The notes under the pieces: generated by a model
What the model saw: the letters and a program-made list of their open reading frames with translations, nothing else
Database searches by the model: none
Told to the model about the DNA's origin: nothing
Virus record (IMG/VR): IMGVR_UViG_3300046314_000658
Source of the DNA: a virus
DNA length: 64,000 nt
Reading direction: 5' to 3' (one strand)
Position numbers and translations under genes: made by a program
Shown: piece by piece, positions 45,869-59,328 of the stretch
How the letters are laid out: each line of letters starts with the position of its first letter
How positions within the stretch are numbered: position 1 is the stretch's first letter

Positions 45869-46138
45869 TCACCACCCCTTGTCTATGATTACCCTAGGCA
45901 TTGCATCCTCTTCGACACCATCTTTCATTAGTTTAGCAAGACGAGGTTTAAATAGAGATTGATTTCCTTTTGTGGTATACAGGATTGGCTGGCCGTGTGT
46001 GTCTTTACCAAATCCTGTCACAGTTGCTTTACGATTCTTGAATTTTCCAATTCGGATTTCGTCTCCTACTTCAATAGCAGGTAGTTCTAGCCGTGGTTGT
46101 TCAGCAGCTTCACATAGATAATCCAAGAATTTGCCCAC
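45869..46138 (-). CDS. Small SH3/KOW-like late protein
   Basis: IEVGDEI.IGKFKNRKA.V; GTG start, KFLDYLCE N-terminus. Confidence 0.6.
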   Translation of the reverse strand: MGKFLDYLCEAAEQPRLELPAIEVGDEIRIGKFKNRKATVTGFGKDTHGQPILYTTKGNQSLFKPRLAKLMKDGVEEDAMPRVIIDKGW

Positions 46139-46139
46139 T

Positions 46140-47390
46140 CTACAACCTCTTATCAATGTAGTTTTTAGCAGCTAGTAGTGTACCAAAACGATTAACAGTT
46201 GCGCCCACGATGGCCCATTGTTTTGGGCCTTCTTGGCGTACAGTGTACTGCTTGTATTTGATAGATTTGTACTCAGGCGATGTTGATTGTTCGTTGACAG
46301 CTTTACTGAAATTTCTCCAGTCGGATCTGATATGAGAACCTGGGAATTTAATCATTGTAACTTCCAACATTTCAAACCCACGGTCAACACTTAGGACTTT
46401 ACATTTCTCACCCTTGTACTTACTATCAGCAGTAATAGTAACAGTATCACCTTTTCTGAACGGAGAAGCTGCTTCTGTTACACCTCGTAAATCTTTTGCG
46501 CACATCCCACGCATTAGTACATTACCGTTTGGCAGCTTAATCGGTTGACCGAGCATTGTTGGACGATAGTCCGCGTGGCCACCAGCGTGACGAAGTACCG
46601 TGTTAGTTTTTGGATCGACTTCATACCAGTCATCATCATTGAAGTGACCGGTGTATGCTTCGTTAACTGCTTTAGACGCATATTTTACATTCTGCGCTGC
46701 GCGTGCTCGTTTATTAGCAGTGTCAGCAATGCTTTTCATCTGATCCAAGATTGGATCCTTAACTGGTGCGGTCAGCTTTTTAACACTACGCTTGATTGTA
46801 TCACTAAGACCTTCCACCACAGTTGGTTCATTGAATGATTCAGATACTGCTGAACGCGATTGTGCAGCTTCCCAACCCAAGTTCCATTCGCGATTGTCGT
46901 CACTACCAGCTGGGTGTGGATTTTTAACAACATCAGCGAGAAATGCATCGTACCCGGCAGCGTAAGCAGTGCTGTTTTTACTTTCTTTGACGCTTGCGTG
47001 CTTCTTTTTGATTTCGAAGTGATTCACGAACTTGCCATTCACAGTGTAATGATCGCCTGCTTTTGAGACGCTTGTGATTTTACCTTTGCCTCGGCCACCT
47101 TCTTGTGGCGGATCCATTTCGTACGACACGTCGTCACCAACTTTATATTTGTGCGTTAGTGCTTGTCCCATTACTTTACCAGCAATTTTGTTGAGTATAC
47201 CTTCTGTCAACGAGCCTTTGCTAGTTGGAGCATTGAAACGACCTTTGTGAGACGTTTTATCCCAAGCGTGGTACGTACCAGTCTTGTTATCTTTTGTAAC
47301 AGTGTAGCCAAGTTTTTTAGCAGCGGTTTCCCATTCGGCAAGTTTGGAGTAAGCGCTTTCATTGAGTGCGATGATAGATGTTAGTTTCAC
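46140..47390 (-). CDS. Putative internal head polyprotein
   Basis: MKLTSIIALNE leader and recurrent (L/V)xE motifs separating small modules. Confidence 0.6.
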   Translation of the reverse strand: MKLTSIIALNESAYSKLAEWETAAKKLGYTVTKDNKTGTYHAWDKTSHKGRFNAPTSKGSLTEGILNKIAGKVMGQALTHKYKVGDDVSYEMDPPQEGGRGKGKITSVSKAGDHYTVNGKFVNHFEIKKKHASVKESKNSTAYAAGYDAFLADVVKNPHPAGSDDNREWNLGWEAAQSRSAVSESFNEPTVVEGLSDTIKRSVKKLTAPVKDPILDQMKSIADTANKRARAAQNVKYASKAVNEAYTGHFNDDDWYEVDPKTNTVLRHAGGHADYRPTMLGQPIKLPNGNVLMRGMCAKDLRGVTEAASPFRKGDTVTITADSKYKGEKCKVLSVDRGFEMLEVTMIKFPGSHIRSDWRNFSKAVNEQSTSPEYKSIKYKQYTVRQEGPKQWAIVGATVNRFGTLLAAKNYIDKRL

Positions 47391-48316
47391 TGTGCGTGTC
47401 CTTTTGATGTACGATATTTAGCCAAGCGTTGAACAAGTCGTTCATTTTTCTTGCGCTCTTTTTCTTCTTCTTCAAATTCTTCCATGTCTGCAACTTCTTG
47501 CTCGCGACTGATCTCAGCATCTTGTTTTTGAGTTTCAATGTCTTGTAACTCGGTTTCAGCTTTTGCTTTTGCAACATCAGCATTCGCAGTACGAACGCCA
47601 GTTTCAGATTTTAGTAGGTCGATCACCTGTTGCAATAACTGAACTGTGCTTTGCTGCATATCTGGAGATGTCTCATCTTCACTACCAAGTTCACCACCTT
47701 CTTCGCCATCAAGGTCCAGTTCATTATCACCAGCATCTTCCTCACCGTCAAGCGCGAGATCGTCTTCACCACCTTCTTCACTCTCTGGTTCCTCATCCTC
47801 TGTAATTGCTTCATCCCATTCAACGTCGACGATATCGTAGTCCTGCTTTAGCATGTACAGCACTTCTGCGATTTCTTTTGGATTGTCTGCATCACTCAAG
47901 ATAGCATTGAGACGAGTTTCAAAATCTTCCGCTTGATCGCGCTTAACGGTGACCTTGATCACTTTACCGTCACCATCTTGCAAACCAAAAGTAGATGTTT
48001 GTGTTTTATCATCAACCTGTGCACGCTTGGTAGCGTTTGACACCTTATCATTTACATCAGCAACGATCTTCGCATTTTTATCTGCACTGAGGCCATTCCC
48101 TCCGTTAGAGCCCACTGCTCCATCGAATTCAAATAGGATGGCTGTACTCACATCAAAAGTTGAGATTACACTTTCGCTAATCTTCAACTTTTGCACTTTA
48201 TTCTTTAGTATCGGACGTCGTTTAATAGAACCAGAGTGCGTAAATGGGTTACCAGCAATCGATGCTGCCCCTATCGAGCCAGCGGCTGCGTCTTCTAAAA
48301 TGGTAGAGAGTTTCAT
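47387..48316 (-). CDS. Acidic putative internal head/scaffold-like protein
   Basis: MKLSTILE leader, D/E-rich linker, TAAATA at 48339-48344 (-). Confidence 0.6.
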   Translation of the reverse strand: MKLSTILEDAAAGSIGAASIAGNPFTHSGSIKRRPILKNKVQKLKISESVISTFDVSTAILFEFDGAVGSNGGNGLSADKNAKIVADVNDKVSNATKRAQVDDKTQTSTFGLQDGDGKVIKVTVKRDQAEDFETRLNAILSDADNPKEIAEVLYMLKQDYDIVDVEWDEAITEDEEPESEEGGEDDLALDGEEDAGDNELDLDGEEGGELGSEDETSPDMQQSTVQLLQQVIDLLKSETGVRTANADVAKAKAETELQDIETQKQDAEISREQEVADMEEFEEEEKERKKNERLVQRLAKYRTSKGHAQ

Positions 48317-48337
48317 AATATGTTGTGGCAGTATTGA

Positions 48338-49747
48338 TTATTTATCACCGAGGTAGCTCTTGTATAAGATTTCTACAGCTTGTTGAGTAGTTCTCGTGGA
48401 TTGTATTGCTTTTTCATTGCTACGAATGTCTGTAATGATATCAGCAAACAGCGACAACGTACGGCGAGTAATCTCAGGAGAGTACTTAAATTTGCGCCCC
48501 GTTGCTGAATCCATTTCAATTTTGTCGACCCGCTGCATAAATGTATCTTTTGCTTGGATCAGCGATTGTTCAGCAGTTTTTAGTGCTTGAATGAGTTGCG
48601 GACGAACTTTATTAATATCAACAGACCAGTCACCTTCACGAGAAGCAAGGAATGCACGGATTGTGCGAGGCGTTTTCAATTTCGGCTCTTGCAGGATTAC
48701 AGACAAATCCTCTAGCAAATCACCGTAGATAGAGCCACTACGTGTTTCAGCAACTTTTAACATTCCCTCAACGGGACGAGGTACAGTAGCTTTGATTTGA
48801 TTGCGAATAGCAAAGTTGAATTGATTGAAAGCGGAGAACACATCCTTATCAACAATCTTGATTTGACGGTTTGTTTTTGGATCGAACATAACGACGCCCT
48901 CGATACCCGGATCATGCTCAGCATCAACATCACTCACGTCACGCAAACTCGGTACCAGCGTACGGACAAACTGTTTGAGCAATTTCTCTTTAATTGGTAG
49001 TTTGAAATCGGTTAATAACTTCTCTGCAACTTGCTTGCGAAGTGCAACCATCTCCCGAGTCTTGGAGGTTGAACGAGTAATATCAGCAATTGACATCGCC
49101 CCCTGCGACGTCTCCACCTGCTGACTGATGTACAGCTTCAATTGCTCCAACTCATCCTCAAAATCAATCTGTTTTAACTTCTGTGCATCTATTTGTTGTG
49201 GAGTGGTGAAACGCCAAGTAATCATTGTTGGCTTCTTGATCAAATCTACCCCATTTTCAGTTGTAATCTCGACCGTCTCTACCTGTACTGGTGCTAGTTT
49301 CAATGATTGAAGTTTTTTGATGATTTGTGGAGATTGTTCGCTGATAGCGCGAAGAAATGCGATTGCTGAACTACCATAAATGATAGCATTTGGTTGTCGA
49401 CCATAAAGAACCTCACACTCAACTAATATATTAGCAGGAACCACTCTTGCTAGACTAGCCTCAACCTGTTGTAGTGCTTGATGAGCAGATTTAAACCCAA
49501 CATACGCAGGGGAGTCTCCCCACTGAGCTGGATCGTATACAGGCGTATCATTCCCTTTTTGCTGTCGGTTGGTATACAACTTACCGTGCTCGTCAATTCC
49601 GAAAGTTAGTGCAGATCCATCTAATTTTTCTGTTGCTGCATACCGAGTAAGGTTGGTAATTGTATCGACGAACTCATCTATCGACAGATCTTCGATGTGT
49701 TCAATCCCTTCTTTTAGGGATTGTTTTAAATATTCACTAAATCGCAT
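48338..49747 (-). CDS. Ligase-superfamily (KxDG) nucleotidyltransferase-like virion protein
   Basis: HIEDL, TEKLDG, EVLY, EGVV, IKIV motifs; MRFSEYL..LKE leader. Confidence 0.6.
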   Translation of the reverse strand: MRFSEYLKQSLKEGIEHIEDLSIDEFVDTITNLTRYAATEKLDGSALTFGIDEHGKLYTNRQQKGNDTPVYDPAQWGDSPAYVGFKSAHQALQQVEASLARVVPANILVECEVLYGRQPNAIIYGSSAIAFLRAISEQSPQIIKKLQSLKLAPVQVETVEITTENGVDLIKKPTMITWRFTTPQQIDAQKLKQIDFEDELEQLKLYISQQVETSQGAMSIADITRSTSKTREMVALRKQVAEKLLTDFKLPIKEKLLKQFVRTLVPSLRDVSDVDAEHDPGIEGVVMFDPKTNRQIKIVDKDVFSAFNQFNFAIRNQIKATVPRPVEGMLKVAETRSGSIYGDLLEDLSVILQEPKLKTPRTIRAFLASREGDWSVDINKVRPQLIQALKTAEQSLIQAKDTFMQRVDKIEMDSATGRKFKYSPEITRRTLSLFADIITDIRSNEKAIQSTRTTQQAVEILYKSYLGDK

Positions 49748-49770
49748 ACGCACCTTCAACAAAAGTGTAT

Positions 49771-51081
49771 TTAGGTTAAACCAAGTAGATCCATCATCGA
49801 TGCTTTCACAGGTGTGGCATCTCTTTGTGGTCTATCAAATGCGCCTTTTTCTTGTGGATTGAAAATCCTCAAGGATTTCGCATCCCAGCCAACATTGACG
49901 ATACTACCAACACCACCCGAACTTCGGGTTTTCAGAAACTGAAAACCGATTTGACCAGCAGCACGCATCGCATCTGTTAAGTGAATGGCAAGTGTCCAGT
50001 CACTAGAACGAATCTTTTCTGCACCACCAGCTTGGTGACTTTGATCATACACTTCAACAGATGCAGCTGCTTTCGTCAGCTGGCTTGCAGTCAGTCCAAT
50101 CATATCATATTCACCAAGCAAGTCGTAAAACTCTTCTGTAATGAACTTGTCGCGTGTACCGATGTTCTCCGAAGACACTTTTTGGATTGGATACAGTTTG
50201 TCGAGATAGTCGAGGACGATGATGTCTGGTATCCAACCTTTTTGAATTTCAATTTCCTTGATTAGTGCACGGATATCATTTGCAGTAGAACCAAGCCGAA
50301 TCTTCTTGATGACCATTTCTCCAGAGACGCCAACCAATCCATTGACAGCGGCTTGACCGAGTTCAGGATGACGACTAAGTTCTACTGAACTTTTCTTCGA
50401 TACAATCATCTGCGCGCGCTTATCAATCATTGGCTCATTCAATTCCAGTGACACATACAGGCAGTTGAGAAACTTACCGTTTAACCCCCGTTGTTTCATC
50501 ATATTGAGAGCGAAGTTGAGAATCGATACGGATTTACCACCACCAGAAATAGCGAGCACAAGCAGCATTTCACCACGTGCCACACCACCATCCATTTTTT
50601 TATCAATCTCCGGATAACCGAGTGAATAACGGATAGCATTTTCCTGCACCTCTTGACGAGATTCGATGTCTTGCAAGAATGAGATGCCGATGTTGCTATC
50701 TACCTTAATCGAGATCGCACTTCGAACCAAGTGTTCCAACTGGTCATACTGCTCCGACATAATCAATGTTGGAGATTGCTCTAAAATTATGTTGCGTAAA
50801 GCACTCTGACGACAAAAAGTTTGGATTTGGTCTTGTGTGTACTTAACCTCATCCCCTAGCAGTGCTTTCACTTTTTTGAGTTTAAGCTTTGTATCAGATT
50901 CAATGATATCAATCGACGGGATTCCGTTATATTTCTCGTGATACTCTTTGATGAAGGTAACAGCTTTGCGAAATTCTGGATCAAAGTATTCTGGTTGAAT
51001 GATTGGCAAAGTTTTGGTGAATAGCTTAGCATCTGCTACCCACAATGAGATTAGCATTTCTTGTTGTTTATTGTCAAGCAT
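49771..51081 (-). CDS. DnaB-like replicative helicase (T4 gp41-like)
   Basis: AISGGGKS, VSLEL, IVLDYLD, TASQL, FLKTR. Confidence 0.9.
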   Translation of the reverse strand: MLDNKQQEMLISLWVADAKLFTKTLPIIQPEYFDPEFRKAVTFIKEYHEKYNGIPSIDIIESDTKLKLKKVKALLGDEVKYTQDQIQTFCRQSALRNIILEQSPTLIMSEQYDQLEHLVRSAISIKVDSNIGISFLQDIESRQEVQENAIRYSLGYPEIDKKMDGGVARGEMLLVLAISGGGKSVSILNFALNMMKQRGLNGKFLNCLYVSLELNEPMIDKRAQMIVSKKSSVELSRHPELGQAAVNGLVGVSGEMVIKKIRLGSTANDIRALIKEIEIQKGWIPDIIVLDYLDKLYPIQKVSSENIGTRDKFITEEFYDLLGEYDMIGLTASQLTKAAASVEVYDQSHQAGGAEKIRSSDWTLAIHLTDAMRAAGQIGFQFLKTRSSGGVGSIVNVGWDAKSLRIFNPQEKGAFDRPQRDATPVKASMMDLLGLT

Positions 51082-52026
51082 TTAGTATATTACGAATGGT
51101 TTTCGAAGTTCTTCTACAATAGTAGAGTTTGCAACAACCAGTTGGTTGTTGTCAACAACGAGGTCCCCTAAACGAATAGTCGAATTGCGAATAATGCGAT
51201 CTTGCACAACGTCTGCTGCAGCTGACTTGTCTGAGGTAGCTAGCGGCAACACAACCGTTGGTAGCGTCGACCCTGTTAATAACAGCGAATTGCCTTTTTG
51301 CAATAGGTACGTCGGAATCACAGCTGAGTACAGGAAATATGGTTTCTCCAGTGCAATCACCTTATAGTGTGTCCACAGTGTACCCCCAATCGGCACATTA
51401 GATGTAGTCCATCCTGTGGATTGAAAGTGGTTAATGAAGTCTAATTGTGTATACAACGTATCAAGCGATGTTAGTGATTTATAAGACAATGTTGCTGTAA
51501 AGGACGATGCTTCAATGTCAGCAGCAATTGTCAAAATATTTGACGTTAGTAAGCTCGGTGCTGTCCACGACGTAGACGGTACCACAAGTGTGGGTGGATT
51601 AAACTGATTATCAGTAACAACTGCAACACCTGTTTGTGGAGTTAGAAGATCGATTATAACAGTATCAGCTGTTTGAGATACAACGGTAAAAGCAGTGGTT
51701 TTAACACGACTGATTCCACCGCTTGTGTTGGCCTCTACAAAAATCTCAACAATCAGCGAACCAATGTGGCCAAAATTGTGAGTAAGCACAATTGTTCGAA
51801 CAGAAGTGAATGAGGTTTTATAGACCTTAGGTGTTTGTCGCCAGGTGATATGACTGCGTGCCGTAACATCAGCATTCGGATCAACAGACAGTACTCCAAC
51901 GCACCCTGGTGTAAGCGTGCAACGATTGAAGAATGTAATAGCTCCAGGAACAACGGATCTGTAATCCGCCTTTGCACATATACTACACTTAAAAATCTTT
52001 TTTATGTTTGCGCGCTTGTTACTCAT
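51082..52026 (-). CDS. Hypothetical protein with N-terminal Zn-finger, probably structural
   Basis: CSIC..C...GC.G.L; beta-rich body. Confidence 0.6.
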   Translation of the reverse strand: MSNKRANIKKIFKCSICAKADYRSVVPGAITFFNRCTLTPGCVGVLSVDPNADVTARSHITWRQTPKVYKTSFTSVRTIVLTHNFGHIGSLIVEIFVEANTSGGISRVKTTAFTVVSQTADTVIIDLLTPQTGVAVVTDNQFNPPTLVVPSTSWTAPSLLTSNILTIAADIEASSFTATLSYKSLTSLDTLYTQLDFINHFQSTGWTTSNVPIGGTLWTHYKVIALEKPYFLYSAVIPTYLLQKGNSLLLTGSTLPTVVLPLATSDKSAAADVVQDRIIRNSTIRLGDLVVDNNQLVVANSTIVEELRKPFVIY

Positions 52027-52508
52027 TGCAGTTCTTTCAATAGGTCACCAAATCGAGGGTATGCGGCGGTGCGTATCGCAACATACTTCTGCACCCCAAA
52101 TATGTGAACTGGAATCTTTTTCTCCGCCACATATTTTATATCAACCACTTGACTAAATCGATCTGTAATAATTTGCTCAAGTAGTAGTGGTTGAAGTGCG
52201 TTTGCAACAACATCACCACGCTCAAATACCATAGGTCGCCAATCAAACTTATTGAATGGTAGAACATATACACTAGATTGTGACTGCACCCAATCAATCT
52301 CAATTGATCGAGCCAGAACATCCTTTATTCCAACAATTTTCTCGATGATAACCTCTGTCGGAGAATGAATGTAATCACGATGACGGACCTTGACTACTGA
52401 CATTACTTTTGCACAAGGTGGACGGCTTTTGATTAAGCAAGTGCCTTCGCCAATTACTTGGCTACAGTGTTGTTTGATGAATTCGCGCTGAGTAGTAGTT
52501 AGATACAC
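52023..52508 (-). CDS. Hypothetical protein
   Basis: GTG start; TAAATA at 52533-52538 (-). Confidence 0.55.
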   Translation of the reverse strand: MYLTTTQREFIKQHCSQVIGEGTCLIKSRPPCAKVMSVVKVRHRDYIHSPTEVIIEKIVGIKDVLARSIEIDWVQSQSSVYVLPFNKFDWRPMVFERGDVVANALQPLLLEQIITDRFSQVVDIKYVAEKKIPVHIFGVQKYVAIRTAAYPRFGDLLKELQ

Positions 52509-52574
52509 TATGTGTTAACGTGATGCGTGAACTATTTAGTCACATAAATAACGCATACACTATTTTATGACACT

Positions 52575-53528
52575 ATGAAATTCTCACAATATTTATCTGA
52601 AGGCATTCGAGCAGCAGATTTCGAAAAGGCTGTTGGCACGATTGTTCAATATCTGCAAAAACAACTGGGTACAATGTATCGGTATCCACAGATTGAGCAC
52701 TACAGTGGTTCACAGGGTCAAGGGATTGGGTTGCGATATTTTCTGCAAGATGGCACTAGCTTGCGTTTCAATTGGACTTCAACGTCTGCATCTTCCAAGC
52801 TAGATTCGATCTCAATTTGGGATGGTTCGTCTCGTCACCCTAATTTCCAGATTCGTGGTATTGGGGATGTGCCACTTGGTCAACTGTCACTCGCAAAGAT
52901 CCTCCCAACACTTGCTCAAACTATCAAAAATCCAAAAGTTGGTGAAGTTGAGTTGTCTACACAAGAGTCAATCAGCGTACTGGCTGATTTGGATACCCAA
53001 CTATCCGAGAGCGTGTTGAACGAAGATGCATTCGATGATGTCGTCGGGGCGCTTGAACAAGGTGCTGTATCTGGCTACACATTCTCAAAGATGGGCCGTA
53101 ACCAAGAGCGTATCTTCAAAGAGATTCTAGCTGCTCATAAAGACGAGTTTGAAACCAAGGTCGATGGTGCTGGACGTCAACGGTACACATTCACAGGCGA
53201 GCTCGGCGAAATTAGCCGGGATGATATCGTGGGCAATGTAGTTGGCAACCAACAAAAGAGTGGTCGTCTTGGACTATCCGTTTCAGTCGGCGGTAACGAG
53301 AGCACAACAACAGATGGTGAAGATGCTGCAGCAAAGCAGTTCCCAGGTGCGCCAGCTCGGGTACCGTACGAAGAGCAGTTGGATGATATGAAGTCAATCA
53401 TCAATGCTGTTGTGAAAGGTGCGAGTAACTTCTCTGTGATATTAGGAGCTGGTGGACTTGGTAAATGTGCAAGTTCTGCGGTGTTATTGAATGGATCATT
53501 TAAAAACTGGGAAAAATCCCTCGCCTAA
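52575..53528 (+). CDS. AAA ATPase N-extein + 20-aa N-terminal split-intein fragment
   Basis: Ends ILGAGGLGK|CASSAVLLNGSFKNWEKSLA; the Walker A is cut at GK, followed by Cys1 (53466). Confidence 0.85.
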   Translation: MKFSQYLSEGIRAADFEKAVGTIVQYLQKQLGTMYRYPQIEHYSGSQGQGIGLRYFLQDGTSLRFNWTSTSASSKLDSISIWDGSSRHPNFQIRGIGDVPLGQLSLAKILPTLAQTIKNPKVGEVELSTQESISVLADLDTQLSESVLNEDAFDDVVGALEQGAVSGYTFSKMGRNQERIFKEILAAHKDEFETKVDGAGRQRYTFTGELGEISRDDIVGNVVGNQQKSGRLGLSVSVGGNESTTTDGEDAAAKQFPGAPARVPYEEQLDDMKSIINAVVKGASNFSVILGAGGLGKCASSAVLLNGSFKNWEKSLA

Positions 53529-53608
53529 AATACTTGCAGCCATTATCCATAAATAGTACTATTAATATACAGCAGCTAGTTCGCTGCATATATTTTTAGG
53601 GACTAACA

Positions 53609-54925
53609 ATGAATGTTACCAACACCAAGCGCAAGAGCAAACACGAGCAACACACTACCGTCATACAGACGATCAACACTCCCGATCAGTTACTCGAATA
53701 CGCATTTGCAAAAGAGTTTCTCAATAGGGGAGATTGGAAGGGTTGGCACCCAGATGTAAAACAGCGTGCATTGCAGCTACTTGAGCTACCAGAGTGTAGT
53801 ATTACGAATTTTAATCTCAAAGTTCGGTTTGATGTACTAAATCCGAATCGCACTGCAAAACCAAATAACGTCGAACATTGGATCAATCGAGGTTGGACCG
53901 AAGCAGATGCAATGCTGCACATCAAAGCTATGCAAAAAGCTCGCAACAATAAAAAACAAGAAATGTTAACCCCCGAATACTGGGTACGAACTGGGTTGAC
54001 TCTACAGGAGGCGCAACAGAAAGCTGATGATTGTAGATTCGGTAATACAGCCAGGCGACCAGAATATTGGATTAAACAAGGTATGTCTGTAGACGAAGCA
54101 AAGACGAAAGTATCTCAACACCAAAGCGCACACTCTCCTAAAACAGTTGGATATTGGACTGCGCAAGGGTTAACAGATGAACAAGCTACTAATAAAGTGT
54201 CAGAAGTGCAAACCAGTGCAGCAGCAATTGCAAAGCAGAAATGGAAGGATGGATTAATCGACAAAGCCACTCGTAACACCAATCTTGAATATTGGATCAA
54301 GAAAGCAAATGGTGATAAATTGCGAGCAAGAAAGTTGCTACGAGAGCGGCAGAGTACGTTTTCATTAGAAAAGTGTATAGCTACGCATGGAGAATTGAGG
54401 GGGACCCAAATGTGGGAACAACGACAAGAGAAATGGCAGACTACGATGCAGTCAAAGCCCCCCGAGGAGTTGTTGCGGATATCTAGAGCAAAGCAGGTGC
54501 GTGGGAATGGGTTGCGATATGGTGTGGTATCACAACAGCTGTTCTGGGAGGTATTTAATATCACCCAACCTCTGGGGTATGCTATTTATTTTGCTGAACT
54601 TGATCAAAAAACGAAAGTAAAAGCCATTCAAGGTAATCATGAATTTGTAATGTTCTGCGATGATGTGGTATATCGTCCGGATTTTTACATACCAGACATT
54701 GGCGTGTGGGTAGAGTTTGATGAGAAACATCACTGGGGGTGTACAGCAGCAAAAGCAAGCGACGTAATTAGAGAGACTAATATTAAACGAGTATTGAAAG
54801 ATGTCACATTCATTCGCATCAAAGAAACAGAATTTGCAGACAATCCAGAAGATTGTGTGACGAAAATAGTTGATGTGATCTTAGCAAAACATCTCCAATA
54901 CGAAGCAGCTCTCCAACAAGACTAA
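53609..54925 (+). CDS. Free-standing endonuclease (Vsr-like/PD-(D/E)xK C-terminal domain, EYW repeats)
   Basis: Repeated (E/G)YW...G.T..EA..KV units; S..LF, YRPDFY, VEFDE.HHW, D..RE, IRIKE. Confidence 0.8.
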   Translation: MNVTNTKRKSKHEQHTTVIQTINTPDQLLEYAFAKEFLNRGDWKGWHPDVKQRALQLLELPECSITNFNLKVRFDVLNPNRTAKPNNVEHWINRGWTEADAMLHIKAMQKARNNKKQEMLTPEYWVRTGLTLQEAQQKADDCRFGNTARRPEYWIKQGMSVDEAKTKVSQHQSAHSPKTVGYWTAQGLTDEQATNKVSEVQTSAAAIAKQKWKDGLIDKATRNTNLEYWIKKANGDKLRARKLLRERQSTFSLEKCIATHGELRGTQMWEQRQEKWQTTMQSKPPEELLRISRAKQVRGNGLRYGVVSQQLFWEVFNITQPLGYAIYFAELDQKTKVKAIQGNHEFVMFCDDVVYRPDFYIPDIGVWVEFDEKHHWGCTAAKASDVIRETNIKRVLKDVTFIRIKETEFADNPEDCVTKIVDVILAKHLQYEAALQQD

Positions 54926-54954
54926 ATACACGATACTACACTTCTACTACCACT

Positions 54955-56037
54955 ATGGATACTACTGCATTGAAACTTGAGACCAAATCGTTTGGTGAAC
55001 TGGCCGACCTAATTAAGCAACATCTCAATATTACAGAGTTAGAACTGAATAGACTATACGACATTCGCAAGTTCGAGTGGACTGTTCAGGATCATAACGA
55101 TACTCCTATTCCAATTATTGGACTAATTCGCAAGCATAGTAAAGCAATTGCTTTTGAATTCAGCGATGGTAGTGAAATTATTACTTCCACCCACCACCTA
55201 TTTGCCACTGACGATAGGTGCGATGTTACATTTGCTGCAGAGCTAGCGGTTGGTGATAGTATTACCAAAATTAGTGGTGAAAAAGTTACAGTAGTATCAG
55301 CAACTGCGCTACCAGAGCAAGATGTGTACGACATCCAAGTTAAGTCTCACAAGATGTTGTATCGCGATGCAGCTGGTTTTGTGCACCACAATACTCATAC
55401 TGTTGAAGAAACACTTGGAGAACTTGGCTTAGAAGACGGGAATGGATACTTCAAAAACACATCGAGCGGCTCTGCAGCTGGATTGTACAAGACTCTATTC
55501 ATGAACCGTACTGGCATTGTGGTGTTAGATGACTGTGATACGATTGTTGCCACACAAGAAGGTCGCAATCTATTGAAGGCTGCACTAGACACCAAAAAGA
55601 AACGGAAACTCGTCTGGGCAAAAATGGGTTCTTGGTTGTTTGACCCAGCTGATGAAGAGGAGATGGCAAAGGCACAAGACTCCATCGCGGTTGGTGAAGA
55701 ACCAGAGATGTTCCCACGATACTTCGACTTTGAAGGTCGTGTGATTATGATTAGCAACTTACCAGCAGAAACACTTGATCCAGATGGTGCACTAGCCACG
55801 CGCGGATTCATCATCACATTAAATCCAACGAAGGATGAAGTGTTTGCATTCATGCGTAAAATTGCACCGAAAATCCCCGTTGAAGGTCGTCAACTAACTG
55901 ATGCTGAGCGTAATGAAGTTGTTGATATGCTTGAGAAGCAATCTGGTACCGCCAATATTCGAAAATTAGTTCGAGGTCTCAATATGTGTGCCAGTGGGAC
56001 CCCTAATTGGCAAAGAATTGTCGAGCGTTATTGCTAA
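54955..56037 (+). CDS. C-terminal split-intein fragment (146 aa) + AAA ATPase C-extein
   Basis: Intein block B ITSTHHLF, block F VYDIQV, block G HHN|T (55393). Extein THTV..IVVLDDCD (Walker B), LKAALD, F.FEGRVIMISN, R finger. Confidence 0.9.
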   Translation: MDTTALKLETKSFGELADLIKQHLNITELELNRLYDIRKFEWTVQDHNDTPIPIIGLIRKHSKAIAFEFSDGSEIITSTHHLFATDDRCDVTFAAELAVGDSITKISGEKVTVVSATALPEQDVYDIQVKSHKMLYRDAAGFVHHNTHTVEETLGELGLEDGNGYFKNTSSGSAAGLYKTLFMNRTGIVVLDDCDTIVATQEGRNLLKAALDTKKKRKLVWAKMGSWLFDPADEEEMAKAQDSIAVGEEPEMFPRYFDFEGRVIMISNLPAETLDPDGALATRGFIITLNPTKDEVFAFMRKIAPKIPVEGRQLTDAERNEVVDMLEKQSGTANIRKLVRGLNMCASGTPNWQRIVERYC

Positions 56038-56040
56038 AAT

Positions 56041-56066
56041 AAAGGACCAAATGCTGGTCCTTTTTT
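56041..56066 (+). terminator. Rho-independent terminator
   Basis: aaaggacca-aatgc-tggtcctttttt. Confidence 0.8.
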
Positions 56067-56100
56067 GTTGCACTAGTATGCAACTATCATAAATAGAAGT

Positions 56101-56135
56101 GCGAGCCACGATGTACCACCATCCGCTCGCTCTAA
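56101..56135 (+). promoter_or_regulatory. Conserved RNA leader motif (copy 2)
   Basis: GCGAGC-CACGAUG-loop-CAUCC-GCUCGC-UCUAA, after TAAATA at 56090. Confidence 0.6.
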
Positions 56136-56156
56136 TGCTAACAAGGAGCAATCAGC

Positions 56157-56392
56157 ATGACTATTTATACAATATATTTGGTGATGAATGTTGTTATGTA
56201 GATAGCTCAACAATTGCTACCGACAACATAGTTAAGGGTTCTCGCGCAATTATTACACCGTTAGGAAGAGTTGGCAGTGTTGCTATTGCGTCAAAGGCTG
56301 CTAGCTTAAATCCATCAACAATCAACAGGCGTCTTAACAGTCCTAATTATCCCGATTGGTGTTTTGCTAATGAAGAGTTGATACACACCTAA
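56157..56392 (+). pseudogene. Internally deleted homing endonuclease remnant
   Basis: AAGGAG + MTIYTIY.. stops after 14 codons; another frame encodes a NUMOD1-like tail IITPLG..S...A...TI.RRL.S..YPDW. Confidence 0.55.
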
Positions 56393-56417
56393 ATATGTCA
56401 ACACATACGCTCAATAT

Positions 56418-57023
56418 ATGAAAGTCACCACTGTTTTATCACTACTAGAAGCAAAGGTAGCACCACTGTATCACGGTACAACTGCTGACAGTGCTGAAAA
56501 AATACTAGCAACCAACAACCTTACAGCTAGGGCTGAGATTGAACCAAATGCACTCAGGTACATGCGCGGTGCTCGAACTGGTGATAAGTCAGTTAGTTTT
56601 AGCAGAAGCATTAGTGCTGCGCGAGCATTCGCATCAGGAGCGCCACGCAGAACCGGAATTTCCGGTGTTGTATTTGTGATTGATCAAGCTCTACTAAGCA
56701 GAGACATTGGAAGACGACTCAACCCATATAATGACCTAACTGCATCTAGTAGTACTGCATCCAGAGGAGCAGGTTCGACAGAATATGAGGAGACTGTGGT
56801 TGGCGATGTGCGGAATTTTAACAAATATGTTAGTAAAATTATCGTGTTTGTGCACCCGCAATATAAAGATATGTTAGATCCTGAAATGTTCCCAACACTA
56901 CTGAATAACCCAAAAACAATCCTAACAACAAATACTACCATCAAAGACTTGCCAAATGTGTATGATAGATTCGCATCAGCAAAGGAATTGGAATTCCAAC
57001 AGCAGCATGACACTGCTAAATAA
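56418..57023 (+). CDS. Putative ADP-ribosyltransferase-fold head protein
   Basis: LYHGT, SVSFSR, EYEE motifs; MKVTTVLSLLE leader; TAAATA at 56390. Confidence 0.55.
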   Translation: MKVTTVLSLLEAKVAPLYHGTTADSAEKILATNNLTARAEIEPNALRYMRGARTGDKSVSFSRSISAARAFASGAPRRTGISGVVFVIDQALLSRDIGRRLNPYNDLTASSSTASRGAGSTEYEETVVGDVRNFNKYVSKIIVFVHPQYKDMLDPEMFPTLLNNPKTILTTNTTIKDLPNVYDRFASAKELEFQQQHDTAK

Positions 57024-57041
57024 ATCATCAATGGACTTTAT

Positions 57042-58667
57042 ATGCTAGTAAATTTTAGGCACGGTATAGTATCTGCCACGCAAAATGCAACACAACAACC
57101 TCGATTCTTGCAAATGCAAGGTCAGGTGGTTAAAATAATTGCAACCAACACTCCAGTTGTATTGACAATTGCACACAGGCAATCAAACTACCTAGTTACA
57201 ATCGAGCAAGATGTTGATACAGCTTGGGTGGGTGTTAGTGCAGCACTAACTTATCTATATGTAGATATTAACCTAAAGACGGGTGTAGTATCGTACGGGC
57301 ACACAACAACTCCACCTTTGATACAATCAACACTACCAACTAATGCAATTAACGGTCAACACTGGTTTGATCCGAGTATCGACACAATGCGCATCAGAGG
57401 GATTGGTGCATGGCAAGAGTGTGCTAGATTGTTCGTTGGGACAGTCGTGGGTGGAATTGCAACCTGCTCTCCATTTGGTTCTCAAATCGGAAAAACCGGT
57501 AACTTTCCAACTGGGAAACTTGCGTTTGATGGTAGTGGAAAGCCAATTTCAAAAAGCACGGGAGAGTTTTGGACAACGGATGATGTGTTTTATGTAAACG
57601 GCACAATATCTGCACCATATGCATTTGGCACGCAACTACAAGTCGCGTCAACAGCAGAAGTAGTAACTCCAATGTCAGTGGTAGCGTATAGTGGCAATAC
57701 ATTCAACACAGTGCGACTAGCACAACCTAGCGATACTGGATACGCAACACTTGCTATAGCAATGGCCGGCGTTAGCGCAGGTGAAAAAGTTAGTGTCGTG
57801 TGCAACGGAGTCATTGTTAACCCAGCGTGGGCGTTTGTAAATCCGAATAGCTTAGTTTGGGTAGGCCAAAATGGAGTAATATCAACCACTCCCGACCCTG
57901 TTAACACATCTCAGCCGATTGGGCGTGTAATAGATGCAAACACTATCGTATTTAACCCTCCGATTAGTGTTAGTGCTGGTACAGGTAGCGGTAGTGGACA
58001 GATGGGACCAAGAGGACCAGAAGGTGCACAAGGGCCTGCCGGAGCTACTGGATTACCAGGGGCGCAAGGTCCTGCCGGTCCTGCAGGAGCAGATTCTACA
58101 GTAGCAGGTCCTGTGGGACCAACCGGCGCCAATGGTACTGGTGGAGTACGGCGGCAAATCATGTATGTAACGTCAGGGTTGGTCGGGTTCGGATCGATAA
58201 CAACTAGTTGGCCAGAAGTTGATGAATTGTATACTCCTGCTGATAGATTAGTTACATACGACGCATATAGTGGTATGTTTACCTTTTTAAAGGCAGGGTC
58301 GTGGAAAATTACTATGGCAGTTAACTACGGATTTCCGGTTGGTGGAAATCTTCCAATGGGAGCATCTACGTATATTAGCAGGATTGACTACGTTAGTGGC
58401 GGCGCTTACTGGCGGCGCAATGAACATCGGTGTCGATTGATGCTCGACAACACTGCATATTTAAGTAGTGACGTATTAATTGGAGGAATAGATGGGTATG
58501 CAGACTTCTTTGTCAAAGAGGTTGGGGAAAATTCTCAGTTCCTAATCGAGATGAGGTCTGAAACTGACGTCAATTCAACCACATACAGTAGCAATCCAGT
58601 TGGGTTAACATACTCTGCGCTTGTTGCTTTCGAACTCGTCGATGAATACGCCCCAAACAACGTATAA
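57042..58667 (+). CDS. Tail fibre/structural protein with collagen-like segment
   Basis: [28 protein letters not shown] repeat; TAAATA at 57017. Confidence 0.7.
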
Positions 58668-59328
58668 TTTAACAGTTGTTACTCACACTAGACTGCATAA
58701 TCCGTATCCTAATTTATTGGAGCGGTGTAAGCAGTCTGTTGCAATAGCATTACCACCAAACTCACAGCATCTAATATTAGTCAACAACCCAACAGATGGT
58801 GTGAAGTTTTCAGAGTTCTTTGCGCACTTACGGTATAGTGCCCTACAATACAGTCGGTATATCGCGTTTGTAGATGATGATGATTACATTCATCCCGACT
58901 CATTAACACTGTGTATGGATGCACTATCACAAACTGGAGCAGGTGCTGCCGTGACAAACGAAGTTATGGTAGATGTTGACGGAAAGCATCTGTCAGCAAA
59001 CCGATATCCTCGGTACTACTGTGGCGTGGGGATGCACCCACGGAACATCCACCACTTAACGGTGTTCAAAAGAGACTTTGTGCAACCAGTTGCGTTAGAG
59101 TTAGCGCTACAGTTTGGCGCTGGTATTGAATGGACGATGAAGGCGTCAGCTTGTCTGACTGGTGGGGCTGTTCACGTTCCGATTGATGGATATTACTGGA
59201 CACAACACGAGAGCAGACCAGGAGCACAACCAAACCTTCGTCAGCAACACGCAAATAAAATTTTACCACTCGGAAACGCTATTAAAAATGCATTCCCGAG
59301 TAGATTTGGACGAATTCCAACTGTTTAA
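58642..59328 (+). CDS. Glycosyltransferase family 2-like protein
   Basis: LTVV..C.QSV..YIAFVDDDD.I..L. Confidence 0.75.
   Translation: MNTPQTTYNLTVVTHTRLHNPYPNLLERCKQSVAIALPPNSQHLILVNNPTDGVKFSEFFAHLRYSALQYSRYIAFVDDDDYIHPDSLTLCMDALSQTGAGAAVTNEVMVDVDGKHLSANRYPRYYCGVGMHPRNIHHLTVFKRDFVQPVALELALQFGAGIEWTMKASACLTGGAVHVPIDGYYWTQHESRPGAQPNLRQQHANKILPLGNAIKNAFPSRFGRIPTV

Follow-up and report, generated by a model that had tools for sequence, protein, structure and literature searches.

How is an ATPase to be made when its gene stops shortly after the lysine of the nucleotide-binding loop, and the rest of the protein is encoded beyond a further gene? The question is raised by nucleotides 52575–56037, plus strand, of a 64,000-nucleotide (nt) stretch of DNA (the window) that is part of the IMG/VR virus record IMGVR_UViG_3300046314_000658, a record of 139 kb estimated to be 52% complete. 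The answer to which sequence comparison and structure modelling point is that the gene of a P-loop nucleoside triphosphatase (NTPase) of an uncultured freshwater giant phage has very probably been fractured at GAGGLGK|T, where the bar marks the junction, by a class 1 intein that is itself split, at the position known as S1, and is putatively trans-splicing. That explanation is favoured because intein-free alleles, the boundaries of the insert, the fold of the larger intein part, the selection acting on it, its catalytic residues and the variable spacers of relatives agree, and the split intein is most likely, as far as prediction goes, active.

The first open reading frame (ORF) of the locus, the N-half (52575–53528), encodes 317 amino acids (aa). 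Its N-extein of 297 codons (52575–53465) closes with SVILGAGGLGK, the last seven residues being those of Walker A, and is followed by the N-terminal intein part, IntN (53466–53528), i.e., Cys1 (C298 of the N-half), 19 further residues and a stop, assigned to block A and strands beta1-beta2. The C-half (54955–56037; 360 aa) begins, with an ATG of its own 1.4 kb 3′ of the IntN stop, with the 146 codons of the C-terminal intein part, IntC (54955–55392), where block B (TSTHHLF, of which the second H, H81, is the invariant histidine), block F (VYDIQV) and block G (GFVHHN, with which IntC ends) are found. The C-extein, 214 codons and a stop (55393–56037), then starts from Thr+1 with THTVEETL and includes the Walker B-like IVVLDDCD. 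Between the halves is a 438-aa ORF (53609–54925) for a putative free-standing homing endonuclease. A preliminary description, drawn up from the letters of the window, had given these ORF coordinates, a 20-aa IntN, a 146-aa IntC and exteins that join to 297 + 214 = 511 aa, had pointed to TSTHHLF, VYDIQV, HHN|T, THTV and VLDDCD in the C-half, and had placed an endonuclease gene between the halves; all of this held on recount. The sequence features of a class 1 intein are present: Cys1, the block B His, blocks F and G, the penultimate His, the terminal Asn and Thr+1.

Does an uninterrupted form of the gene exist, and does it read as splicing would have it? Intein-free orthologues of 503–513 aa (P0080–P0086, P0090, P0091, P0094 and P0095) are present in a large protein collection, and the junction in all of them is GGLGK|(T/S)H.VE..L. 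One, P0080, has the predicted spliced length of 511 aa, shares 92% identity with the joined exteins and reads GAGGLGK|THTVEETL. Its contig, L013, is syntenic with the window, with genes for a DnaB-like helicase, a 314-aa protein and proteins of ~130–160 aa upstream, and DNA homology between the two (80–82%) stops at window position 53465 and resumes at 55390; from the break at 53465 and a resumption at ~55393, the complete mobile insert (IntN, nuclease gene and IntC), missing from the intein-free alleles, is therefore 53466–55392, or 1,927 bp. Uninterrupted homologues of a 642-kb uncultured phage, of Rhodobacter phage RcSimone-Hastad (there an ‘AAA-ATPase’) and of Vibrio phage D479 are likewise colinear with the joined exteins across the junction, so the comparison with uninterrupted phage homologues that the preliminary description had proposed came out in its favour. 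The insert is missing from the closest relatives of the exteins (78–92% identical) and present in more distant ones (56–63%), a sporadic distribution which, judged from these sequences, is that expected of a mobile element.

What sort of protein is interrupted? After in-silico splicing a Walker A motif, GxxGxGK[ST], and a Walker B motif are present, and relatives in T4-like phages are annotated as nrdC.10 and others as AAA-ATPase. The intact orthologue P0080 matches the family AAA_16 at 21.1 bits, below the cut-off of 32.6, the C-extein matches phrog_1250, of unknown function, at 2.3e-18, and a sequence search of PDB with the intact ATPase yielded zero matches. By its sequence the protein is thus best described as a P-loop NTPase outside any curated family. 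It had been said not to be recognisable as a reported split-intein site, which is borne out in that it is outside the eight enzyme types of PMC2677866 and was not found as a split-intein host in the literature searched. Both the intein and the ATPase are present in one copy in the 139-kb record. A tblastn search with the N-half and a megablast search with 46000–58000 gave zero matches among 50,697 phage records, and the window is therefore without a close cultured relative.

And the domain ahead of the C-extein? The Pfam profile Intein_splicing gives IntC 17.1 bits against a cut-off of 35.8, i.e., sub-threshold, and the best PDB match at the sequence level is the gp41-1 intein at E 0.066. A structure model derived from 58 relatives (predicted local distance difference test, pLDDT, 90.3; predicted template modelling score, pTM, 0.82) has 46 Foldseek matches in PDB at E <= 0.001, the best being again gp41-1 (E 1.6e-6), and the matches listed to rank 50 are without exception inteins or intein-like (BIL) domains. 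Of the support that had been hoped for from intein profiles, then, the profile itself fell short and a HINT fold was supplied instead by the structure model and its matches. VIA-align places model residues from 5–8 up to 146 on residues from 11–14 to the end of full-length inteins (Z 12–14). By this modelling IntC is a HINT domain without its first strands only (beta1-beta2; the first 11–16 residues), so the 20-residue tail after GK would supply them. In contiguous relatives GK|C is followed by two short strands, a linker and then I.IG.LF, the element at which IntC starts; the ‘contiguous’ form of such relatives (P0013, P0024 and others) might result from gene calls that read through. On the model, the split position is S1, after beta2 and before the ‘I.IG.LF’ of beta3/alpha1, as in the VidaL and PolB16 inteins.

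The residues on which the chemistry depends have been kept. Five clusters of close C-half relatives, with IntC 52–85% identical, are all in fractured loci, and in the fractured alleles, as in a 23-row alignment (A3), C298 (Cys1), H81, H144-H145-N146 and T147 are invariant. The wider alignments of 58–67 family members show no variation at K60, H81, H145 or N146 and very little at H144. Compared with the closest allele, L010, IntC has a ratio of non-synonymous to synonymous substitution (dN/dS) of 0.068 and the C-extein one of 0.022, synonymous sites being close to saturated; by that comparison IntC is under purifying selection. The proposal in the preliminary description of a naturally split intein with Thr+1 accordingly gains from the HINT-fold IntC, the intein-free junction alleles, purifying selection, the conserved catalytic residues and the Vsr-like nuclease gene between the halves. 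As a side observation, no member of the IntC family departs from lysine at K60, part of an LI.K motif (alignments A1, A3 and A5); we know of no role that has been assigned to it.

How might it all work? A free-standing Vsr-like homing endonuclease gene would have split the intein itself after its second beta-strand (S1). The three genes would each be expressed from their own TAAATA-type late promoter, and the 20-residue tail of the N-half would dock as beta1-beta2 into an otherwise complete IntC of 146 residues. Cys1 would form the thioester, Thr+1 would attack, Asn146 would cyclise with help from His145, and the product would be the 511-aa ATPase with its GAGGLGKT loop intact. The endonuclease, for its part, would cleave alleles that lack the intein close to their P-loop codons, and the cassette would thereby spread.

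The part of this that is least constrained by sequence is IntN. It is 20 aa in the window and 18, 17, 16, 14, 13 and 12 aa in the relatives L007, L015, L009, L004, L005 and L008, respectively. Six alleles share the pattern C-x4-[STNV]-x-L-x-[GIV]-x-[FL]; in the window ~12 residues are conserved and the last eight are not. For comparison, published natural IntN fragments are 15–37 aa (PMC13014065), 15 aa having been termed the shortest characterised (PMC10189870), so that the natural IntN of 12, 13 and 14 aa in the relatives are under that record. Two of these relatives, L004 and L005, come from phages with flanks 98–99.6% identical and an identical C-half, and differ in a cassette (L004:2298-3674; L005:2175-3675) whose left boundary is within the Cys1 codon and whose right boundary is 31 nt before the nuclease stop. 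It holds IntN, 14 aa in one and 13 aa of different sequence in the other, and a divergent nuclease gene; from these boundaries, IntN and the nuclease gene were therefore exchanged together. The comparison suggests cassette exchange by homing and a natural cross-compatibility of IntN sequences.

Several considerations weigh against the favoured explanation, and they are best taken together. IntN is poorly conserved beyond about five positions. The block B threonine is replaced by Ser or Ala, Ser being present there in the gp41-1 alignment too. Threonine at +1 is a weaker nucleophile than cysteine or serine. The two almost identical phages have different IntN tails on an identical IntC, so pairing must be promiscuous or one of the copies defective. 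With the record at ~52% complete, an intact ATPase paralogue may be present elsewhere in the genome. Finally, and counted as minor, the predicted complex of IntC (residues 1–170 of the C-half) with N-half residues 276–317 is weakly supportive of pairing: it scored 0.58, the best of three controls scoring 0.01, with contact agreement of at least 58% between runs and partner pLDDT of at least 42. In calibration 58 of 80 solved complexes passed, as did two of 110 mismatched pairs, and passing scores of 0.60 or less were those of seven of the 80 solved complexes and of both mismatches. As to the model of IntN with IntC that had earlier been called for, an IntC without its first strands does fit, and the predicted pairing reaches the weak level.

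Could the intein halves then have ceased to splice, and now only hold the ATPase halves together non-covalently, as in phage Aeh1 NrdA, or could the ATPase be dead or decaying? A phage gene fractured by an endonuclease, with products that assemble non-covalently, is on record (PMC3045599), and the loose conservation of IntN, its swapping between near-identical phages and the tentative complex prediction all suit such a state. Yet a domain of 166 residues left in place between the Walker A Lys and Thr would disrupt the nucleotide site; Cys1, H81, H145, N146 and Thr+1, residues of use for the chemistry only, are invariant; dN/dS (rounded, 0.07 for IntC and 0.02 for the extein) is low; and the reading frames are all intact in more than six divergent alleles. 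We regard loss of splicing as improbable, though it is the alternative that fares best.

Removal at the RNA level is a different matter. Vsr-like endonucleases also occur in group I introns (PMC2677866; PMC3239194), and the 1.9 kb might be a group I or II intron with a nuclease ORF, the intein-like motifs being incidental. However, zero Rfam families match in 52000–56500 at E <= 1, and there is no need for RNA removal of 53466–55392 as the flanking codons specify a high-confidence HINT fold under purifying selection. Moreover, what separates the halves varies. It is the nuclease gene by itself in the window, L007 and L009, the nuclease gene with two minus-strand genes in L004–L006, two unrelated minus-strand genes without a nuclease in L008 (2552-6155), and an inverted nuclease gene with three more small genes in L015 (5001-9902). 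By analogy, the last two resemble what the gene-uncoupling model of Dassa et al. would place among its later stages. The variety of spacers, the lack of an Rfam intron match and the conservation at protein level therefore tell strongly against RNA splicing, for which hardly any credence is left, and against decay.

The record is, after all, metagenome-assembled, and an assembly or sequencing error might have made an unbroken intein, its endonuclease domain in frame, merely look split. This is scarcely credible either. The nuclease ORF begins at a start codon of its own with AGGGA upstream, and stop codons flank it at either end. The same architecture with differing IntN lengths and spacers recurs in seven other contigs from different samples. 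Contigs from other freshwater metagenome runs, which may share one campaign, cover both junctions with zero differences (X7, 52000–54285 and 54623–55967; X8, 53178–54339), so the stop that ends IntN is no product of misassembly; nor do these contigs have joints in the locus.

With the split-intein explanation preferred, what of the protein encoded between the halves? In the model of the nuclease the N-terminal two thirds are mostly helical and include about five conserved repeats of helical type (EYW..G.s.eEA). The C-terminal alpha/beta domain, putatively Vsr-like and at about residues 345–438, has an invariant PDFYIP...EFD, a nearby His, R388 and E406. Matching to Pfam gave MTES_1575 at E 0.0011, below the cut-off, a sub-threshold PvuRts1I-like match and, at E <= 1, zero NUMOD matches; a sequence search of PDB with the nuclease gave zero matches. 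Foldseek matches, all at E > 0.001, include I-Bth0305I (3r3p; probability 0.93, TMt 0.56), 3hrl (TMt 0.66), AbaSI/PvuRts1I (4par) and Vsr (1cw0). The assembled hints are consistent with a Vsr-like fold and weakly suggest it. A family of that type is present in half of the fractured genes of Dassa et al. (PMC2677866; PMC3239194). I-Bth0305I, of the ‘EDxHD’ Vsr-like group, has a C-terminal nuclease domain after N-terminal repeats of DNA-binding type, as the nuclease here may have too, and its family occurs between split-intein halves (PMC3239194); the 438-aa protein is, however, ~170 residues longer, and the structural matches are weak.

The preliminary description had also noticed TAAATA ahead of the endonuclease gene and of both halves. 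The motif is indeed there, and tied to gene starts. It is 30 nt 5′ of the N-half ATG (as ATAAATA, 52544–52550), 59 nt 5′ of that of the nuclease (ATAAATA, 53549–53555) and 32 nt 5′ of that of the C-half (TAAATA, 54923–54928, overlapping the nuclease stop codon), all on the plus strand. Across the window 17 of its 47 occurrences are within 80 nt upstream of one of 70 long ORFs, a space that makes up 4.4% of both strands, which amounts to an enrichment of ~8-fold; ATAAATA is not over-represented in the window overall (15 found vs 11.8 ± 3.5 expected). By analogy it would be a promoter motif like that of T4 late genes. A hairpin between TAAATA and the nuclease start was considered as a translational hairpin of the type that Dassa et al. 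described and rejected, not being significant in comparison with shuffled sequences (z −1.46; 18 of 200).

How new is this? That fractured phage genes with split inteins and intervening endonucleases exist, as the preliminary description had stated, was established in 2009 by Dassa, London, Stoddard, Schueler-Furman and Pietrokovski (PMC2677866). In their loci both halves point the same way, and each includes a part of the intein; they are separated by a free-standing endonuclease gene of GIY-YIG or Vsr-like type, and TATAAATA late-promoter elements are upstream. The ATPase locus has this layout of co-oriented halves, each with its intein part, and a nuclease gene between. Their ‘Terminase’ locus has a 122-residue IntC with all motifs but N1; the others are split at the canonical endonuclease site, in contrast to S1 here.

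Among individual inteins the nearest in organisation is VidaL (6vgv), a natural atypical split with a 16-aa IntN at S1 (PMC13014065). Like the ATPase intein, with its 20-aa IntN, it is cysteine-dependent and has a short IntN that comprises the first strands only and a long IntC with blocks B, F and G. VidaL residues 17–144 are matched by the IntC model (Z 13.0, root-mean-square deviation 2.8, 127 aligned), residue 17 being where the VidaL IntC starts. At 17–21% identity, however, it is no closer to VidaL than to gp41-1, DnaB or RadA inteins, the PDB sequence search with IntC had zero matches to VidaL, and VidaL is biochemically proven while the ATPase intein is known from sequence and model. 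AceL-TerL, GOS-TerL and Cat (6dsl) likewise interrupt phage P-loop ATPases, are atypically split in nature and have a short IntN, there 25–37 aa, but the split is later, after alpha1 (S2; PMC13014065); consistent with S2, the Cat IntC chain aligns with the IntC model from residue 25 onward only. PolB16 OarG, with a natural split at S1 and a 15-aa IntN, shares the split site and differs otherwise, being Ser1/Ser+1, cysteine-less, with a dispensable block B His and a PolB polymerase host (PMC10189870), as against Cys1/Thr+1 and an invariant block B His in the ATPase intein. The mini-intein of Pyrococcus horikoshii RadA (4e2t, 4oz6) gives one of the highest-scoring and most extensive structural alignments (Z 14.0–14.2, 130–139 aligned); it is contiguous, archaeal and 17–19% identical to IntC. 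Its insertion point is likewise a P-loop, that of RadA, between GK and T, and its +1 residue is Thr.

The supposed rarity of such an atypical split, stressed in the preliminary description, turned out to be overstated: the P-loop GK|T/S is a classic intein hot spot (PMC4760082), an IntC without N1 was already present in PMC2677866, and related IntC parts are found in dozens of P-loop ATPase hosts. An exhaustive phmmer search with IntC yielded 72 clusters at E <= 0.001. In 56 of them an N-terminal IntC of 125–152 aa (median 138) ends with HHN|T (50 clusters) or HHN|S (six), and behind it is the post-P-loop part of Clp-type proteins (AAA_2, ClpB_D2-small, ClpX zinc finger), RecA/UvsX, PhoH, DnaB, SF2-helicase, ABC and nrdC.10-like ATPases. 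The one of these whose locus was inspected, on contig L017 (2298-4817), has a RecA N-half that ends SAGK|C plus 32 residues, i.e., a 33-aa IntN, a gene for a 289-aa NUMOD3 nuclease and a C-half of a 138-aa IntC and the rest of RecA; at the start of that contig there is an IS605 OrfB/Cas12f-like gene. In P0020 and P0067, members of the same ATPase family as the window protein, the intein is three residues earlier, at G|TGKT. A related long IntC a few residues earlier in Walker A is also seen more generally (P0020, P0067, P0038 and P0021, with HHN|TGKT, HHN|TGKS or HHN|TPGIGKS), and sites of the HHN|TGKT type appear from sequence to be a second insertion point in the same P-loop.

In short, the ATPase is new as a host protein, while its split intein belongs to a class already known, and common in metagenomes; the locus will not surprise a specialist. 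It is one more phage ATPase made dependent on predicted protein trans-splicing by a mobile intein-endonuclease cassette, and it leaves understanding of how such elements work unchanged. Atypically split inteins with peptide-sized N-parts are, nonetheless, wanted for protein semisynthesis and live-cell labelling, and few have been characterised (AceL-TerL, GOS-TerL/Cat, VidaL and PolB16). To them the locus adds a natural Cys1/Thr+1 example and an allele series of IntN from 12 to 20 aa; the empty-site alleles define the homing site, the natural IntN swap hints at cross-reactivity, and the locus could, on prediction, be a source of split inteins with ultra-short IntN. There is a respectable, if rather less than even, chance that the locus stands for a lineage of Cys1/Thr+1 inteins, large and so far uncharacterised, that are split at S1 and target the GK|T/S bond of many phage P-loop ATPases, in which an IntN core of ~12 residues suffices and one IntC accepts different IntNs. 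If so, split inteins with promiscuous, ultra-short tags would be ready-made for protein semisynthesis.

Some features of the neighbourhood may be added. Just 5′ of the intact ATPase gene in L013 is a gene for a 139-aa NUMOD4/HNH endonuclease (L013:3481-3900), in whose place the window has a spacer of 66 nt only (52509–52574). On the other side of the ATPase gene ~3.3 kb of the window (56038–59322) are missing from the syntenic L013; included is an ORF of 541 aa (57042–58667) whose product has a collagen-like run of Gly-X-Y and is probably a fibre protein. In L004 a gene 3′ of the C-half (L004:6737-7171) has within it tandem 75-nt repeats (L004:6892-7149), the copy number of which varies between L004, L005 and L006.

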